Below, piece after piece: positions 25,996 to 32,549 of a stretch of 64,000 nucleotides of DNA. Under the pieces are notes generated by a model. It searched no databases and had not been told where the DNA came from. It was given only the letters and a program-made list of their open reading frames with translations. A program made the position numbers and the translations under genes. Numbering within the stretch: position 1 is the stretch's first letter; every line of letters begins with the position of its first letter. Origin of the DNA: a virus (lineage: Duplodnaviria; Caudoviricetes); the IMG/VR virus record IMGVR_UViG_3300028581_000010, one strand, 5' to 3'.

Positions 25996-26297
25996 TTTGG
26001 TTGTTTCTTTTTCTTTGGTGCTTTAGGTGGTCTGGGATGGTGCTCCTTGAACATGTACTCCATGTCGGCGTCACCATACCAATCGTCCACAACGTACTCC
26101 GCAGCGGTCTCATCAATTTCTAGAAGGCCATGCGCTCTGCAATGGGCGACGGCGTCCTTAGAGAGTTTCATCTGAACTTCGTCAAGTGCATTGGCCTTGT
26201 CTCTTAACTCCTGGGTTATTTCATCGAGCTGCCTGTACGCCTTTCTTGCATTGCGCAAGATGCTCTCTATCTCTGGGTTACAGTATCCAAGTCCCAT
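25992..26297 (-). CDS. Hypothetical protein
   Basis: 101-aa ORF. Confidence 0.6.
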   Translation of the reverse strand: MGLGYCNPEIESILRNARKAYRQLDEITQELRDKANALDEVQMKLSKDAVAHCRAHGLLEIDETAAEYVVDDWYGDADMEYMFKEHHPRPPKAPKKKKQPK

Positions 26298-26303
26298 ATA
26301 ACA

Positions 26304-26519
26304 CTAGGGCAGAGAATGCCCGCAGTAGGGGCAGAAGCGCTGCGGTGTATTCGTTTCCACAGGTACAGGAGCACCCATGGGGTTAGCGTAATAGCGCGTA
26401 TGCTTCTTCTTGGTCACGTCTACTATATTAGGTATAGCTATTGAAACTATGATTGCGATTACAGATATCACCACGAGCAGCTCGAGGAGACTAAATGCTT
26501 TGTGTTTAAGTTTTTTCAT
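26304..26519 (-). CDS. Miniature prepilin-like (type IV pilin N-methylation motif) protein
   Basis: KHKA|FSLLELLVVISVIAIIVSIAIP is a class III signal with F1 and E5; C-terminal CPYCG. Confidence 0.8.
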   Translation of the reverse strand: MKKLKHKAFSLLELLVVISVIAIIVSIAIPNIVDVTKKKHTRYYANPMGAPVPVETNTPQRFCPYCGHSLP

Positions 26520-26706
26520 TGTCGTTCGTTAAAAAGTATTCGATGTCGGCGTGTGCCAGCTTTAAAGCTCGTTGCTTTTCATCTTTGGTCTTGTAGCTGA
26601 ACTTGCATGTGCTGACTTGCATAAGTTTTCCATCCACATTTTCACATATAGCTTCCACGTAGACAACAGCTCCGTCATCGCGTGCATTTGTTTCGATTAT
26701 TTTCAT
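26506..26706 (-). CDS. Hypothetical protein
   Basis: 66-aa ORF. Confidence 0.55.
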   Translation of the reverse strand: MKIIETNARDDGAVVYVEAICENVDGKLMQVSTCKFSYKTKDEKQRALKLAHADIEYFLTNDNEKT

Positions 26707-26709
26707 TGT

Positions 26710-27249
26710 TTAAGTTGGTGGGCAGAGTAGCATATGCTGCTCCGCATGACAGTTGCGGCACAGTATTTGCAGGTTATTTAAGTCGGAGTTACGCCTATTT
26801 TTATCTTTATGGTGCACTTCTAGCAATTTGGGGAATTTATCATAACTACATAACTCACAGCAGCTTGCTTTATGTTTAAACGCCTTAGCTCTATAGCGGC
26901 TGTAGCCTTCTTCCCCAAGGGTCCCGTAGTGCTCGGGTAAAAACTCCAAGGGGCCACCTACGTGCTGCGCACTAGCCCTACAGGTATTAGAGCAAAAGTA
27001 TAAGCCGCTTTTAGATAGCTTCAACCTACGCGGTGAGCGGTATAGTGCTTTTGCGCAAGCTGCGCACTTTACGTTACTACCCATCCGTTCTTTTCTTTCA
27101 GCTGTTTCTTTTTTACGACGGGCTGCTATGTCCTCTCGGACACAAGCAGCAGAGCAGTATAGCCCCCAACCACGGGCCACATCTCTGGCGGTGGTTAAGA
27201 AGGATTTAGAACAGCGCTTACAGTTTCTGTGTACATTTTTCGTTAACAT
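26710..27249 (-). CDS. HNH homing endonuclease with N-terminal Zn fingers
   Basis: CELC...LEVHHKDKNRRNSDLNNLQILCRNCHAEQH; own promoter TTGTGA-16-TATATT. Confidence 0.85.
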   Translation of the reverse strand: MLTKNVHRNCKRCSKSFLTTARDVARGWGLYCSAACVREDIAARRKKETAERKERMGSNVKCAACAKALYRSPRRLKLSKSGLYFCSNTCRASAQHVGGPLEFLPEHYGTLGEEGYSRYRAKAFKHKASCCELCSYDKFPKLLEVHHKDKNRRNSDLNNLQILCRNCHAEQHMLLCPPT

Positions 27250-27315
27250 AACTACGAATATACACGGTAGATAGAAAATCACAATCTAAATCTGCGTCTA
27301 CCCTGTTGGAAAGAA

Positions 27316-27386
27316 TGGGAGGTGAGGGGATCGAACCCCCGCTTTCTCCGTGTAAAGGAGACTCGCTACCATTACAACAACCCCGC
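27316..27386 (-). tRNA. tRNA-Val(UAC), 5' half overlapping the HNH gene end
   Basis: Loop TT-TAC-AC in stem TCTCC/GGAGA; canonical T-arm; acceptor has a C2:C71 mismatch and the D-stem is weak. Confidence 0.75.
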
Positions 27387-27698
27387 GTGTATTTCGGCGT
27401 GGCAATTTGCACACACCAAATCACATTTGTCTAGCTCGTCAGTAACCTTAGCCCAGGCTCGATTGAATCCAGTACCTATTCCGAAGTCCTTCTTATCCGG
27501 ATCCCTGTGGTGGAAATGCAGTGCAGCTAAGCATTTATCATAGTTGCAATATTTACATTTTCCTCCTTTGTACTCGACAGCTTTACCTTTAATCCTTAGA
27601 TTTTTTGCTTTAGTGAAACACGAGTTGCACATTGTTACTCTGTGCCCGCGACTTCTGGCGTACGCGTATTCCCTGCCGCATTTTTTGCATGTGGTCAT
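27372..27698 (-). CDS. HNH homing endonuclease inserted in tRNA-Val
   Basis: CKYC...LHFHH...ELDKCDLVCANCHAEIH; stop codon lies inside the tRNA D-arm. Confidence 0.85.
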   Translation of the reverse strand: MTTCKKCGREYAYARSRGHRVTMCNSCFTKAKNLRIKGKAVEYKGGKCKYCNYDKCLAALHFHHRDPDKKDFGIGTGFNRAWAKVTDELDKCDLVCANCHAEIHAGLL

Positions 27699-27733
27699 TC
27701 ATAATATTTACCACACACGGTAGACTTAGTCAA

Positions 27734-27757
27734 GCTCTACCGCTGAGCTAACCTCCC
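27734..27757 (-). pseudogene. Orphan 5' half of tRNA-Val (acceptor strand plus D-arm)
   Basis: GGGAGGT-TA-GCTC-AGCGGTA-GAGC; GGGAGGT is the perfect complement of ACCTCCC at the tRNA-Val 3' end (27317-27323). Confidence 0.85.
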
Positions 27758-27769
27758 GGTTGTTAAATT

Positions 27770-27846
27770 TGGTGGGCGCGGTAGGATTCGAACCTACGAC
27801 CTATCGCCTATCAAGCGATTGCTCTAACCAGCTGAGCTACGCGCCC
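27770..27846 (-). tRNA. tRNA-Ile(GAU)
   Basis: Cloverleaf, loop TT-GAT-AG, encoded CCA. Confidence 0.93.
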
Positions 27847-27847
27847 G

Positions 27848-27925
27848 TGGGGTACTCGATGGGGCTCGAACCCACAACCGCCCGACCCACAATCGGGAGC
27901 TCTAACCAATTGAGCTACGAGTACC
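27848..27925 (-). tRNA. tRNA-His(GUG)
   Basis: G-1:C73 pair, loop TT-GTG-GG, encoded CCA. Confidence 0.93.
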
Positions 27926-27930
27926 GTTTG

Positions 27931-28245
27931 TTATGTTGCTTTGTATTTTTCGCAAAGATCCCGCATTGGAACGTATACGATAGGCGCAAGCAGGTTTTCC
28001 ACTTCCTCGGCTGCGATCTTGATTACGTCTCTGTTGTAAGCACTTATAGCGTACGTCCTTTTTCGGAGATGGTGTTCCAACTTGTGTACTTGAAAATAGG
28101 ATACATACAGGCTTTTCTTGCTGGCCACCTCCTTAACCACAGCGAAGCGCATGACTGTATTCACAGGAAACATCACGTAGTCTCCTGGAAACACCGGGCG
28201 CTTAAATAAGTCTAAAAATACTTCTGGTTGTCGTTTGTCATCCAT
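27931..28245 (-). CDS. Hypothetical protein
   Basis: 104-aa ORF; DLFKRPVFPGDYVMF is an SH3-like start common in phage small proteins. Confidence 0.6.
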   Translation of the reverse strand: MDDKRQPEVFLDLFKRPVFPGDYVMFPVNTVMRFAVVKEVASKKSLYVSYFQVHKLEHHLRKRTYAISAYNRDVIKIAAEEVENLLAPIVYVPMRDLCEKYKAT

Positions 28246-28383
28246 TGTTGTTAAATTTACTTGCCTAATTTATTGATTTTGGGCATAGTTGCCGTATGAA
28301 TAAAGGATTTAAAGATAAGATGCGTATTTGTCTTTGTGCAAAAAGTACTCGAGCATAACGGATATACTATCTCGAAGAAAAAG

Positions 28384-28467
28384 CAGCGTCGCTAGGGGTC
28401 GAACCTAGAATGCCTAATAGGCTCTATCTCCAAAGGATAGTGTGTCTACCAATTTCACCACGACGCT
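28384..28467 (-). tRNA. Class II tRNA with UUG (Gln) anticodon on a Leu-type scaffold
   Basis: AGCGTCG/CGACGCT-G73; D-arm GTGAAATTGGTAGACAC; loop CT-TTG-GA; variable hairpin GCCT-ATT-AGGC. Confidence 0.8.
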
Positions 28468-28505
28468 AAAGCTGTCAGCCATATCTATGTGCTGTAAGTA
28501 AATTA

Positions 28506-28578
28506 TAGGAGCTCTGGGACTCGAACCCAGAACCAAGAGCTTAAAGGGCTCCTGCTCTACCAATTGAGCTAAACTCCC
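28506..28578 (-). tRNA. tRNA-Lys(UUU) with C33
   Basis: Cloverleaf; loop CC-TTT-AA. Confidence 0.88.
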
Positions 28579-29003
28579 TGTAATTTATTGTTAGCTAAGT
28601 AATGCAATTCTCTGTGGCAGTTAGCGCAGAGCACCTCACATTTAGCAATCTCGCGTAGAAGTGTGGTCCTTGAATATTTTGCGTACATCACGGATACTTC
28701 ATGAAGTTTATCTTCAGCCTTGTGGTGAAAGTCTAATACATAGTGTCTTGCGTCTCCACATTTAGAGCACTTTAATGTTTGCTTATACTCTATAAACCAC
28801 GTTTTGTTTTCTTGTACGCGCGCAGCTCTCTTGCCGACCTCCGTTTGTTTATTACGCAAATAATAGGCTGTACGGCGCTGTGAAGAGCACGTCTTGCACA
28901 TACACTGCCTGCTCACATATATACTGCCGTCCTTGCGCTTTTTATTTTTTATCCAAAACTGAGACAGGTCCAGCTGCTTCTTACATTTGCTGCATATTTT
29001 CAT
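28569..29003 (-). CDS. HNH homing endonuclease
   Basis: CSKCG...LDFHH...EIAKCEVLCANCHRELH; stop TAG = tRNA-Lys positions 8-10. Confidence 0.85.
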   Translation of the reverse strand: MKICSKCKKQLDLSQFWIKNKKRKDGSIYVSRQCMCKTCSSQRRTAYYLRNKQTEVGKRAARVQENKTWFIEYKQTLKCSKCGDARHYVLDFHHKAEDKLHEVSVMYAKYSRTTLLREIAKCEVLCANCHRELHYLANNKLQGV

Positions 29004-29009
29004 TCTGTA

Positions 29010-29038
29010 AATATACAGCTAAAAAGCAGTGCTGTCAA
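29010..29038 (-). promoter_or_regulatory. sigma70-like promoter (leaderless HNH transcript)
   Basis: TTGACA-17-TATATT, ATG 7 nt downstream. Confidence 0.7.
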
Positions 29039-29066
29039 ACTTTAAAGATGCTGACAGTCTATTGGA

Positions 29067-29138
29067 CGGAGCCTACGGGATTTGAACCCGTGTTACAGCC
29101 GTGACAGGGCTGCGTGTTAACCACTACACTAAGACTCC
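29067..29138 (-). tRNA. tRNA-Asp(GUC)
   Basis: Cloverleaf, loop CT-GTC-AC, G73. Confidence 0.93.
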
Positions 29139-29147
29139 AAGACCTTG

Positions 29148-30281
29148 TTAAATATCCAGGTCCATGCAGGACAGCCCGTTACCCATAAAGCGGTTTCCAC
29201 CACCACGGAACACTCTGTTGTAAGAGCTGCGAGGCTCGATACGCAGAGTACGAATGGGCTGCTTGCAGATGTCGAGTTCCGTATCATTTTCCTCAGCATC
29301 AATAATCTCCTTCTCAGTGAATGCGGAGTATATGTTGATCAGATCCGTGTCGAGTACCTCGGCGATCTGGCCGAGCTCGTCGCGGTTGGCCCAGAGGTCG
29401 TAGCCCACACAGCCATAATTGAGCGGAGCGGGCCGCAGCTTGATGTTATCGTGCAGCAGCTTCTCGCCAATAGGCGTGCCATTCTCATCCTTGATAACCT
29501 CGTAGACGGCGTGCAGATCCGCGATCTTCTTGACGTTGAACACGTCTTCGAAGGCGGAAGGAGCCTCGTGGTGAATGTTCACCTCATCGATGATGGCGCA
29601 CACGGAGTCCACCGTAATAAGCTCCAGCTCGGAGACGAAGTCGATGACAGACTGCCGCAGCTCGGTATACTTCAGCCGGTCATCCACGATCTGGTAGATG
29701 ATGTCCGGATGCAGGTTGCCGAATGTCTTCACGTACCGAATACGTCCTGGCCGCTGTATCATGTTGGGCTCGATGTTGAGCTCGTTGGTTGTAAGCAGAA
29801 ACAGCTTGCGGTAGGCACCCTTGGTAACGCCGTCCATAAGCATGAGCAGTTTACTTGGGTGGCCGTATTCCCGAGGAAATACCTTCTCGAACTCGTCGAA
29901 GAAGAGCACCACGTCCTGCTGAATGTTACCGACGAACTCATTGATGTCGTCGTAGGCAGCGTCCACGATGATCACGGGCAGCTGCAGCTTGTTGGCAAGA
30001 ATCTCGCAGGTAACCGTCTTGCCGGTACCCCGAATGCCGTTTAGCAGCGCTCCGAGGTTGGTAGTTGTATTGTTCCAGGTACGGATGACACGTGCGATAA
30101 AGTCGTCGCACAGGCCATATACCTTCGGTGGCAGAGGGAACTCCTTGGAGATGTGCTCCAGAAAGAATCCCATGCGTTGGTTCCACCGAAGGATGTATAT
30201 TCCAATCGGTAGTAGTTCTAGTTGCTGGCTAACCTCTTCGATGCGGAAGATGTTGCCACTCTGTGACCAGTTGTTTTTCAT
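29148..30281 (-). CDS. AAA+ ATPase
   Basis: Walker A GIRGTGKT, Walker B FFDEFEK, sensor TTN, Arg finger RPGRI. Confidence 0.9.
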   Translation of the reverse strand: MKNNWSQSGNIFRIEEVSQQLELLPIGIYILRWNQRMGFFLEHISKEFPLPPKVYGLCDDFIARVIRTWNNTTTNLGALLNGIRGTGKTVTCEILANKLQLPVIIVDAAYDDINEFVGNIQQDVVLFFDEFEKVFPREYGHPSKLLMLMDGVTKGAYRKLFLLTTNELNIEPNMIQRPGRIRYVKTFGNLHPDIIYQIVDDRLKYTELRQSVIDFVSELELITVDSVCAIIDEVNIHHEAPSAFEDVFNVKKIADLHAVYEVIKDENGTPIGEKLLHDNIKLRPAPLNYGCVGYDLWANRDELGQIAEVLDTDLINIYSAFTEKEIIDAEENDTELDICKQPIRTLRIEPRSSYNRVFRGGGNRFMGNGLSCMDLDI

Positions 30282-30309
30282 TTATGTGTTGTGGTGTGTT
30301 GGTTGTTTA

Positions 30310-30972
30310 TTAGTAGGTCTTTCCCTCGGCATAACGCTTCCTGCGATATGCCCGCCCTTTTCCTTTATTCTTGTTCTTATACGTTGGTAGCTGCATGTCG
30401 CAGTTTCCGCAAACTAAGCGGATGTTATTTATCTTGTTGTTGCCGGAGTCTCCATCAATGTGGTCCATGATTAACGGAATAGGTTGTCCTTGCCATGTTG
30501 TATTCTTACATATGGCGCAGTTGTGTCCTTGTTTTTCCAGCATATAACGCTTAGCTGGGCCTTTTGATCTGGCTGCTATAAAGCTGCCACTCTCGATAAT
30601 TTTGGCGCGCGACGCTGCTCGCCGTGCTTCTGTAGCGCATTCCTGTGAGCAGTACTTAGTGTAAGTCATCACCTTTTTGCAGGTTGCGCATGCCTGTTGT
30701 GTACGTTGCAGCCTAGCTACAGTTACAATATCTAGCGAGCCTGCGCCACGCCGATATCGGCCTACATTGTTGTGGCTTACAGCGCAACCGCAGCTACAAA
30801 ACTTATTATGTCTTTTAGCGTATATAAGTTCCCGTTTACAGGTAGTGCAGTGTGCAGGGTTATCTTTATATTGTTGCTTGCGCTTTAAGCATATAGCTTG
30901 TTGCGTTTCTCTGGATTTTAGCCAACCTAGCCTCCCAGCTTCGGTATGGCTCATTTTATTAGTTGAGTTCAT
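30310..30972 (-). CDS. HNH homing endonuclease with Zn fingers
   Basis: CAIC...MDHIDGDSGNNKINNIRLVCGNC; promoter TTGAAT-16-TAGACT, 7 nt before ATG. Confidence 0.85.
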   Translation of the reverse strand: MNSTNKMSHTEAGRLGWLKSRETQQAICLKRKQQYKDNPAHCTTCKRELIYAKRHNKFCSCGCAVSHNNVGRYRRGAGSLDIVTVARLQRTQQACATCKKVMTYTKYCSQECATEARRAASRAKIIESGSFIAARSKGPAKRYMLEKQGHNCAICKNTTWQGQPIPLIMDHIDGDSGNNKINNIRLVCGNCDMQLPTYKNKNKGKGRAYRRKRYAEGKTY

Positions 30973-31017
30973 GCAACAAGTCTACCAACCATTGCAAAAC
31001 ATTCAAGTATAAAGATG

Positions 31018-31091
31018 AGCCCTTGCTCAGATTCGAACTGAGGACATCCTCATTACAGGTGAGGTGCTCTAACCAACTGAGCTACAAGGGC
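31018..31091 (-). tRNA. tRNA-Thr(UGU) with C33
   Basis: Cloverleaf; loop CC-TGT-AA. Confidence 0.9.
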
Positions 31092-31094
31092 TTA

Positions 31095-31165
31095 TGGAGC
31101 TGTCGAGGGTCGAACTCGAGAATCCGGCTTGCAGGGCCAGTGTTTTACCACTAAACTACAACCCC
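31095..31165 (-). tRNA. tRNA-Ala(UGC) with C33
   Basis: G3:U70 Ala identity pair; loop CC-TGC-AA. Confidence 0.9.
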
Positions 31166-31176
31166 ATGTAAAAATC

Positions 31177-31250
31177 TCGGAGAAACAGGATTTGAACCTG
31201 CGGCCTCCTGGTCCCAAACCAGGCGCTCTACCAAGCTAAGCTACTCTCCG
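31177..31250 (-). tRNA. tRNA-Pro(UGG)
   Basis: C1:G72, loop TT-TGG-GA. Confidence 0.93.
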
Positions 31251-31273
31251 TTGTCTGTAAATACTAACAGGTA

Positions 31274-31594
31274 TTACGAATCTTTGTCAACTTCTTCCAG
31301 CCATTCGAGAACCTTCATCCTCTTGGCTAGCAGCCATGTGCCTCCCTGACTCTCAGGTCTTGAAAACTCTTGGTAGTCATCTACTTCTACCTTAAACCAA
31401 GCTCTCTTCTTCTTTGAAAGATGCGGAGCTGTGGGTTTTTTCAAGGCATGAAAGCCTGGGCGGACTGCAAAGCCTTTTGTGGGGTGGTTCTCCGCCACCA
31501 TCCACTCGTTAAAAGCTATCTTCTTTGTCTTGTTGATGAACAGGGACTTTACGTCCCCGTTCTTCAACACGCGCATTAACTTGTAGGCGATCAT
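31274..31594 (-). CDS. Hypothetical protein (conserved phage type)
   Basis: 106-aa ORF with a GFHA motif. Confidence 0.65.
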   Translation of the reverse strand: MIAYKLMRVLKNGDVKSLFINKTKKIAFNEWMVAENHPTKGFAVRPGFHALKKPTAPHLSKKKRAWFKVEVDDYQEFSRPESQGGTWLLAKRMKVLEWLEEVDKDS

Positions 31595-31600
31595 TATCCT

Positions 31601-31936
31601 TTAAGCAGGAGACTCATCTACAGCGCAAGCCTCCCCTACCGTATTGCGTGTAGCGCGCACCACATCAACCATGGTTGCTCTACTTGCCCCTAGCGACGCA
31701 CTTGCCCCGCAGCATTCATGCACTTCTCCTCTTGCCTCAGCCACTGTCGCAATGCCGTCAATGTGCTTGCTGTTAAGGCTGGTGGCCAGCATTTTCACCT
31801 CTTTGTCTGTAGGGTTGGCGTAGTATTCATGTAACCCGTCGAGTAACCCAGATACCGAGGTGTAGACCACTCGTTGGCATCCTACCTTGACTATGAAGCC
31901 GTTTAATACGGCTGTTATGTGTATGTCTCTAATCAT
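31601..31936 (-). CDS. Hypothetical protein
   Basis: 111-aa ORF; NGFIVKVGCQ. Confidence 0.6.
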   Translation of the reverse strand: MIRDIHITAVLNGFIVKVGCQRVVYTSVSGLLDGLHEYYANPTDKEVKMLATSLNSKHIDGIATVAEARGEVHECCGASASLGASRATMVDVVRATRNTVGEACAVDESPA

Positions 31937-31943
31937 ATTGTTT

Positions 31944-32549
31944 TTAGCTTAACTGCAGGCTCTTTGGTAATCCATCGCCTTCGATGGTCTTCTTGAAGCA
32001 CATGTTTGCGGCGATATGGTAGCACACGATGCCCTCAGGGTTCATGAAGCCTGGTGCGGCTGCGCTGCCGTTTTCCTTTAGCTTGGCTAGCGTATCGTCA
32101 CATGCTTCTGTTGTAAATGGTCCCCTGTATAACACAGGCGCCAAGTGGCAGCAGGCAGGCAGCACTTCCTGGAGCTTGCTACCAACCAAAGCGGGCTCTG
32201 TGCCGTGAGCGCACCATCTGGAGACGTTGAATAGGCTCCAGCGCTTTTCCTTCATGTTGTATTTTCTCTGAATACCCAAGCCCCACCATTCTCCAAAGTG
32301 GCGGCCAGGCCCAAGAGTAATGAGCTCGTCACGGTGCTCTGTTACCCAGCGGGCAAACCCAGCATTATCATCCTGAGGTGTAATCCACCTCGTACGGGAG
32401 CCGATCAACAGCTTGCCCTCGTCAGTGATGTACACACAGGCGTTGGTCCCATCGATTTTTTCACTAATTATTACTTCTCTTGACAATCTCGCCATCTTTG
32501 GGAAAGCAAGAAACTCGTCATTTATTGTTGTTTGATTTGTGTTTTCCAT
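31944..32549 (-). CDS. RNA ligase (Rnl2-like adenylyltransferase domain only)
   Basis: EKIDGTN, GSRTRWI, FGEWWG, PEGIV, FKKT. Confidence 0.85.
   Translation of the reverse strand: MENTNQTTINDEFLAFPKMARLSREVIISEKIDGTNACVYITDEGKLLIGSRTRWITPQDDNAGFARWVTEHRDELITLGPGRHFGEWWGLGIQRKYNMKEKRWSLFNVSRWCAHGTEPALVGSKLQEVLPACCHLAPVLYRGPFTTEACDDTLAKLKENGSAAAPGFMNPEGIVCYHIAANMCFKKTIEGDGLPKSLQLS

Follow-up and report, generated by a model that had tools for sequence, protein, structure and literature searches.

A 64,000 nucleotide (nt) stretch of an uncultured lake-water phage (IMG/VR virus IMGVR_UViG_3300028581_000010; Caudoviricetes), referred to here as the window, contains a tRNA-Val(UAC) gene divided by a 373 nt insert that carries an HNH endonuclease gene. 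The insert lies between tRNA-Val positions 25 and 26, and the order on the minus strand is an orphan 5' half (positions 1-25), the HNH gene, a substitute 5' half (positions 1-26), and the original remainder of the tRNA (positions 27-73). The best explanation for this arrangement, to which we assign a probability of roughly 0.7 to 0.75, is that an HNH homing cassette inserted into a host-like tRNA-Val(UAC) gene by ectopic homing and left a hybrid tRNA behind. A first-pass annotation of the window had proposed an insertion after tRNA position 25 with the cassette between the two halves, and rereading of the sequence locates every one of its elements on the minus strand and in this order. The components are as follows.

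27734-27757, minus strand: orphan 5' half of tRNA-Val, 24 nt, tRNA positions 1-25, read from the sequence as GGGAGGT-TA-GCTC-AGCGGTA-GAGC (acceptor strand GGGAGGT, U8 A9, D arm GCTC/AGCGGTA/GAGC)
27705-27733, minus strand: predicted sigma-70-like promoter of the HNH cassette, read by eye
27372-27698, minus strand: free-standing HNH endonuclease gene, 108 amino acids (aa), apparently intact (PHROG 2255)
27362-27386, minus strand: substitute 5' half, 25 nt, tRNA positions 1-26 in the ARAGORN structure (GCGGGGT-TG-TTGT-AATGGTA-GCGA-G)
27316-27361, minus strand: original 3' part of tRNA-Val, with anticodon arm, 4 nt variable loop, T arm, acceptor strand ACCTCCC and A73

ARAGORN joins the last two of these in a call of tRNA-Val(tac) at 27386-27316 (minus strand), a gene of approximately 71 nt with its anticodon TAC at 27354-27352; CCA is not encoded.

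The orphan half and the HNH cassette

The orphan half pairs 7/7 by Watson-Crick rules with the ACCTCCC acceptor strand (27323-27317) located 410 nt downstream. Complete pairing of this kind occurs in only 0.046% of 84,390 non-cognate acceptor-strand pairs assembled from 291 distinct tRNAs, and none of the 291 tRNA 5' strands is a perfect partner of ACCTCCC. A genome scan finds the exact orphan 24-mer in at least 120 bacterial genomes, and 118 of the 120 matches listed are at the start of a tRNA-Val gene (114 tRNA-Val(UAC) and four tRNA-Val(CAC)). Because of this identity and the 7/7 pairing, the orphan is a real tRNA-Val fragment and not a chance resemblance. Among the matches listed, the closest complete genes are those of 15 genomes, nearly all labelled Hyphomicrobium (metagenome-assembled genomes, MAGs), in which the same half is joined through G26 to an anticodon arm one compensatory pair removed from that in the window. 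The T arm, acceptor strand and A73 of the 3' part are 25/25 identical to those of tRNA-Val(UAC) in the Hyphomicrobium MAGs, and C48 of the 3' part is suited by the G15 of the orphan. The original tRNA rebuilt from the two pieces folds as a cloverleaf (-30.1 kcal/mol) all but identical to its minimum free energy (MFE) structure. Judged by these matches, the orphan and the 3' part are the pieces of one former, host-like tRNA-Val(UAC) gene. They had been regarded as true partners in the first-pass annotation, with the reservation that the orphan might belong to a different, deleted tRNA; the 24-mer, the pairing and the Hyphomicrobium match show it to be a half of tRNA-Val and not of such a tRNA. 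That the orphan is unchanged relative to the bacterial sequence suggests a recent insertion. The position of the Hyphomicrobium tRNA-Val(UAC) genes as nearest to the rebuilt tRNA-Val among the matches listed is also a weak hint at the host lineage.

The cassette starts exactly at the junction, as had been noted earlier, with a -35-like TTGACT (27733-27728) that directly abuts the orphan. A 17 nt spacer, which holds the 10-mer TCTACCGTGT, leads to a TG-n-TAAATA (-10 hexamer at 27710-27705), and the ATG at 27698 follows after 6 nt; the HNH mRNA would be leaderless or nearly so. The open reading frame (ORF) matches PHROG 2255 'HNH endonuclease' (E 7.5e-27) and has a weak profile match to the HNH region of McrA (6ghc), and the Pfam HNH model does not match the 108 aa ORF. 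Residues H63, H64, N98, H100 and H104, together with the Cys columns, are invariant or nearly so in 32 aligned homologues, and all are kept in the window HNH protein. Because every invariant Cys, His and Asn is retained, N-terminal Cys pairs included, the 108 aa reading is right and the gene looks intact. An Rfam search of 26000-32000 at E up to 1 places no intron, ribozyme or other RNA family in the insert. On its sequence the cassette is a free-standing HNH gene, in neither an intron nor an intein, that has its own expression signals with a predicted promoter, and what had been described as an HNH ORF in the insert can be extended to an intact gene in a self-contained cassette.

Two rival explanations can be weighed from the locus itself. 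The sample is a metagenome, tRNA sequences are repetitive, and the coverage of the phage is low (2-6x), all of which could favor a chimeric contig joined at a repeated tRNA sequence. Such an artefact is scarcely credible here: the HNH protein is carried in the same context by eight independently assembled contigs (from separate Logan and ENA assemblies), and a single metagenome contig (run X6) is identical to the window across 27201-27787, spanning the orphan, the HNH gene and the tRNA without a difference. A sequencing-run search found the stretch in 10 lake-water DNA runs and in no RNA run among those listed, and contigs from four lake-water runs contain pieces of the phage identical to the window. 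The other explanation, raised as an alternative in the first-pass annotation, is that in a long transcript the orphan pairs with the 3' part, the 373 nt insert is excised and phage RNA ligases seal the halves, which would make this a tRNA of the split or intron-like kind. In the MFE fold of 27760-27310, GGGAGGU is indeed paired with ACCUCCC, the orphan has not diverged from the bacterial sequence, and there is an Rnl1-like RNA ligase gene ~2 kb from tRNA-Val and a second, weak RNA-ligase-like match ~7 kb away. We nonetheless consider rejoining highly improbable. The insert has a promoter-like site of its own and a complete ORF, the Rfam search that finds no intron or ribozyme family in it also reveals no group I ribozyme core, and the site between positions 25 and 26 is outside the anticodon loop, with no intron of bacterial or phage tRNAs known to sit there. 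Only 5 bp (CUACC/GGUAG) and no extended complementarity are seen by eye beside the halves, the z-score of the fold is only -1.97, and its long-range helix is the acceptor stem itself, with no bulge-helix-bulge-type processing motif at the halves. We know of no bacterial enzyme that excises such an insert. Halves that are apart in the DNA are likewise a feature of the split tRNAs of Nanoarchaeum and the permuted tRNAs of red algae, but those have complementary flanks and a bulge-helix-bulge and depend on archaeal or eukaryal splicing machinery; neither such flanks nor a bulge-helix-bulge is seen here.

Junctions between HNH genes and tRNAs in the family

Homologues of the HNH protein are commonly situated beside tRNA genes. 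There are tRNAs at 17/26 IMG/VR loci with an HNH homologue and at 71/80 further IMG/VR loci, and at 41 of these 80 a tRNA on the same strand has its start in the range from -25 to +200 nt relative to the ORF end; 12 of the 41 tRNAs overlap the ORF end and 16 more begin no more than 22 nt past it. The three best homologues adjoin tRNA-Thr, tRNA-Arg and tRNA-Ile, and tRNA genes flank the homologues on both sides in the cultured phages checked (Cronobacter CR3, Erwinia Kaldavass and Bacillus Anthony). Within phage tRNA clusters, the normal home of the family is a few bases upstream of a tRNA gene.

At 6/80 loci the overlap measures exactly 10 nt, with U8-A9-G10 of the tRNA used as a TAG stop codon. 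Loci with this overlap are L002, L239, L242, L251, L260, L267 and L286, and a paralogue within the window shares it.

28506-29003, minus strand: paralogous HNH gene (144 aa, PHROG 2255; ORF 29003-28569) and tRNA-Lys, the in-genome model of how the family adjoins tRNA genes

The TAG stop of the paralogue is U8-A9-G10 of the tRNA-Lys, and the two genes overlap at 28569-28578 (minus strand). The 10 nt TAG overlaps involve Lys, Ile, Asn, Trp and Pro tRNAs, and RNase P cleavage at these junctions would leave the HNH mRNAs without a stop codon. The tRNA-Lys in the window (28506-28578), the 5' strand of which lies under the HNH ORF, has wobbles at G1·U72 and U6·G67, and the similarly arranged tRNA-Lys at L002 has two G·U pairs as well, a tiny sample for the idea that overlap degrades the stem. 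At L271 and L009 the stop codon is in the D loop of the tRNA. The L009 homologue (45% identical) overlaps a tRNA-Asn-like sequence (L009:3337-3412) by 15 nt, with its TAA at positions 13-15 in the same register as in the window; this sequence is passed over by ARAGORN on account of its broken anticodon stem. Two candidates for a further orphan half were rejected, one at L260 that has no D arm and one at L009 (TCCCCCG) that is within chance, and pattern scans find no further tRNA fragments in the window.

Two other homologues have unusual surroundings. At L006 (3307-3383) the HNH homologue ends exactly at the start of a tRNA-Val(UAC) whose 5' part is abnormal, having G8 G9 and no clear stem in its D region, and this may represent a further patched 5' end; there is no orphan half within 400 nt upstream of the site. 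At L016 (3225-3335) the HNH homologue is followed by a tRNA 3' part (T arm, TCGCCCC and CCA), 5 nt, and then a matching 5' half (GGGGCGA-TA-D arm), which looks like a permuted gene or the remnant of a tandem duplication, and there is more tRNA debris upstream of the same HNH gene.

Origin of the substitute half and fate of the hybrid tRNA

The HNH ORF ends with GCG GGG TTG TTG TAA, and the first 15 nt of the substitute half are these last four codons and the stop, the TAA (27374-27372) occupying tRNA positions 13-15. The substitute is 14/24 identical to the orphan (counted by eye), and it puts A15, in place of the orphan's G15, opposite C48. The nine bases GCGGGGTTG that open it encode Ala-Gly-Leu and also match the acceptor strand of Gly-type tRNAs. 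Because Ala-Gly-Leu after CANCHxEIH is the conserved tail of the HNH family in the 32-homologue alignment, GCG GGG TTG is native coding sequence too. The D arm of the substitute has U8, A14, R15, G18, G19, A21 and G26 in register, and on these letters it cannot reasonably have arisen by chance or from nothing. A search with the pattern GCGGGGT-TG-N4-AATGGTA-N4-G, which does not include the anticodon, gives tRNA matches only to the Gly(CCC/UCC) type in JGI metagenomes (six matches, of which three are distinct, and two with the exact stem GCGGGGT/ACCCCGC), and Gly has the highest mean similarity to the substitute among isotypes in 392 distinct tRNAs. Bacterial tRNA-Gly genes usually start with GCGGG. 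Because the D arm is canonical and the whole 25-mer resembles the 5' half of tRNA-Gly(UCC/CCC), the substitute was probably imported with the cassette from another tRNA of this type. The earlier proposal that the end of the ORF makes the substitute therefore holds for the acceptor strand, which is formed by the last codons, and probably not for the half as a whole, since coding alone does not account for the canonical tRNA bases of the D arm.

We infer the repair route and the donor from this arrangement. In the donor, the HNH ORF would already have been fused to the 5' end of a downstream tRNA with a small D loop, probably of the Gly(UCC/CCC) type, and this fusion would be easy because GCGGGGTTG is common to the coding tail and the Gly-type acceptor strand. 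A double-strand break in the tRNA-Val gene would have been repaired from this donor, with the right join in a short stretch common to both tRNAs (GGTAG....G-TC) at the boundary of the D arm and the anticodon stem, and with an illegitimate left join. The product would be the old 5' half stranded upstream, the HNH gene, and a hybrid tRNA with a foreign 5' quarter that also codes for the Ala-Gly-Leu-Leu-stop tail. The insertion would destroy the presumed target site, and the end of the orphan (25/26) would mark the cut region, which provides a concrete prediction of the enzyme cut site. The target of SegB is a conserved tRNA motif (PMC2330249), and recombination between the 3' end of T6 segB and tRNA-Tyr's 5' end is driven by microhomology (PMC13096335). 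One-sided illegitimate break repair has been proposed as a route that takes endonuclease elements to ectopic sites, and microhomology-mediated one-sided repair of endonuclease breaks is documented in T4 (PMC2988022, citing Parker et al. 1999).

Searches for an uninterrupted gene and for relatives gave little to compare. The exact uninterrupted allele (orphan, N0-3 and anticodon arm) gives no match in IMG/VR or JGI metagenome contigs, the exact 3' part has no match in IMG/VR, and a DNA search of INPHARED returns generic tRNA matches only. All contigs of the phage examined carry the HNH gene, and INPHARED, IMG/VR, JGI contigs and the protein collection yielded no close relative for a presence/absence comparison. 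The neighboring ATPase (29148-30281) has at most 36% identity to IMG/VR proteins, and its best matches in a large protein collection are 61, 55 and 54% identical; the relatives' contigs examined are not syntenic, and L069/L070 and L071 each have an intact tRNA-Val. No HNH-less allele is present in the contigs of the four lake-water runs, the coverage of which is too low to count against a rare allele. Joints of 27341 to 27734 in run contigs were rejected as an HNH-less allele, and because they have foreign anticodon arms and only 20-24 matching letters on the shorter side, they are the tRNA-Val genes of other organisms. The substitute pattern matches one coding region only in IMG/VR, and the metagenome Gly matches are not beside a close HNH relative.

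Several observations weigh against the proposed ectopic homing. A phage relative lacking the HNH gene, which the first-pass annotation had predicted, was not found in the searches run, and because no phage relative has an uninterrupted gene, the direction and the age of the event are read solely from the anatomy of the locus. No donor emerged from the searches run, which gave no HNH protein more than 60% identical and none next to a tRNA with the substitute 5' half. The likeness to tRNA-Gly may in part be a consequence of Ala-Gly-Leu coding, and a Val-type donor is possible because in L069/L070, which with a 55% identical ATPase is the nearest related phage found, an intact tRNA-Val of 71 nt shows the same T8-G9, AATGGTA and G26. 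An orphan half is present at 0/51 of the other HNH-tRNA junctions screened (10 + 41), leaving this as a single case. The cassette promoter was not listed by a promoter scan with a consensus, because its -10 hexamer lacks T at position 6. Finally, the MFE structure of the hybrid tRNA is a non-cloverleaf of -20.3 kcal/mol, which speaks against its function.

Two further explanations accept an insertion and differ as to what happened at the new tRNA. If the substitute had evolved in place from the 3' end of the HNH gene after a plain insertion, no tRNA donor would be needed, and because GCG GGG TTG codes for the family tail, the acceptor strand indeed need not be tRNA-derived. We think this improbable: a 4 bp D stem and a 7 nt loop with A14, R15, G18, G19 and A21 in register are very unlikely without a working tRNA to select, the tails of homologues past Ala-Gly-Leu have no likeness to a D arm, and ORFs of this family commonly run into a pre-existing tRNA. 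Much harder to dismiss, with a likelihood that comes moderately close to one half, is that the same insertion left the tRNA-Val gene dead, with the hybrid an accidental look-alike and the phage using the tRNA-Val of its host. In the acceptor stem of the hybrid, C2·C71 is a mismatch and G4·U69 a wobble, there are two G·U pairs in the D stem (ARAGORN), and A15·C48 is also unfavorable; the mismatch and the weak D stem had been recognized earlier. The hybrid cloverleaf (-17.3 kcal/mol) is less stable than that of the rebuilt original by 12.8 kcal/mol and does not coincide with the MFE structure, the Rfam tRNA model score of 49.9 bits is the lowest of nine cluster tRNAs scored, and when a read-through transcript is folded, it is the orphan and not the substitute that takes the 3' strand. 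E. coli valyl-tRNA synthetase is said to need a regular acceptor helix. The element may not have restored the tRNA as suggested previously, since the hybrid folds much less well than the original. On the other side, the pairing of the substitute with ACCTCCC is better than that of 97-98% of random tRNA 5' strands, the flawed pairs at C2 and G4 fall on codon positions fixed by Ala and Gly, and the three free codon choices (GCG, GGG and TTR) all pair with the Val 3' strand (p 0.006, given phage codon usage). The hybrid keeps A35, C36, A73, U8, A14, G18, G19, A21, G26 and the T loop, and its score is far above the threshold of 29. A UAC tRNA should also be useful, because GTA makes up 28% of the Val codons in window ORFs. 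From these predictions, we would put the chance that the hybrid is still matured and charged with valine just under even.

If the hybrid left by ectopic homing is processed, an RNase P cut at G1 would remove the HNH stop codon, so that tRNA maturation and HNH translation would compete, and this would apply equally at the tRNA-Lys junction. It is rather unlikely, in our estimation, that the cassette is an adapted mobile unit and not a one-off scar, with C-terminal codons that double as an acceptor strand and a usable 5' half handed back to the target. Were this true, tRNA genes would offer safe homing sites that need no intron, and RNase P, in cutting the tRNA, would silence the mRNA of the nuclease itself. 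If it applied generally, this would add to self-splicing introns and inteins a third means by which a homing endonuclease can enter an essential gene without harm.

Related systems and the neighboring HNH genes

Homing endonucleases are thought to enter essential genes only within a self-splicing intron or intein and otherwise to occupy intergenic positions, whereas here a free-standing one is found in a 71 nt RNA gene, with the damage to tRNA-Val offset by an imported segment that also codes for the tail of the enzyme. We found no precedent in the literature on split, interrupted or chimeric phage tRNAs for a nuclease gene in the body of a tRNA with a stranded half and a hybrid tRNA. The closest parallels are the fungal mitochondrial mORFs, which enter atp6, atp9, cox2 and nad3 with a foreign gene end while the displaced native end persists as a remnant nearer to relatives, giving hybrid genes in Allomyces macrogynus (atp6) and Glomus (atp6, atp9, cox2 and nad3) (PMC3630166). 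In both systems an endonuclease ORF within a gene brings an in-register foreign copy of the displaced segment while the native remnant stays, and the remnant is nearer to relatives; here, in a comparison with bacterial genes and with no phage relative, the orphan matches bacterial tRNA-Val at 24/24 positions, of which the substitute has 14. The mORFs differ in that they are of the LAGLIDADG or GIY-YIG type and replace the 3' end of a protein gene, whereas the window element is an HNH gene that replaces the 5' end of an RNA gene, and its replacement overlaps the endonuclease coding end and seems to come from a different tRNA type. The locus would thereby extend the 'bring your own gene end' strategy of fungal mitochondria to phage tRNA genes, and it suggests that nuclease genes reshuffle phage tRNA repertoires and make hybrids across isoacceptor types. 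It also amounts to a test set by nature of the degree of mismatch, in the acceptor stem and in tertiary pairs, that tRNA-Val can tolerate.

Among elements linked to tRNAs, HNH genes are known in mycobacteriophage tRNA arrays (PMC5966550), and SegB and the other nucleases of tRNA clusters are similarly free-standing, tRNA-linked and equipped with their own promoter, with recombination between nuclease 3' ends and tRNA 5' ends; SegB differs in being a GIY-YIG enzyme encoded between intact tRNA genes. Group I introns with a homing endonuclease in tRNA anticodon loops (PMC3984707) are also mobile nuclease elements that invade a tRNA gene with limited damage, but here there is no ribozyme, the site is 25/26, and it is segment replacement at the DNA level, in place of splicing, that limits the damage. 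The integrases by which tRNA 3' ends are restored at attB resemble the cassette in that the incoming DNA carries a copy of the displaced tRNA segment; here, however, there is no integrase, the replacement affects the 5' end with a copy that is not identical, and break repair would take the place of site-specific recombination.

The interrupted gene is flanked by the following features.

27770-27846, minus strand: tRNA-Ile(GAU), the intact upstream neighbor (ARAGORN; Rfam tRNA 74.1 bits)
27769-27758, minus strand: spacer of 12 nt between tRNA-Ile and the orphan half
26710-27282, minus strand: second, unrelated HNH gene directly 3' of tRNA-Val (Pfam HNH, PHROG 1271)

The sequence AATTTAACAACC is the phage-specific spacer sequence ahead of the tRNA-Val site. 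The second HNH gene has a likely start at ATG 27249 (179 aa by the gene call) and a promoter-like site at 27284-27257. It is one of four HNH genes in a cluster at 26710-30972. In each, a sigma-70-like site stops 6-7 nt short of the ATG and a Shine-Dalgarno sequence is missing, and because of this spacing and this absence their mRNAs are predicted to be leaderless or nearly so. The exact 10-mer TCTACCGTGT found in the promoter spacer of the HNH cassette has only two copies in the 64 kb, both on the minus strand (27715-27724 and 27262-27271), and both lie in the -35/-10 spacers before these two HNH genes, which are unrelated to each other. The 10-mer may serve a regulator common to both or be a vestige of cassette ends that they share.

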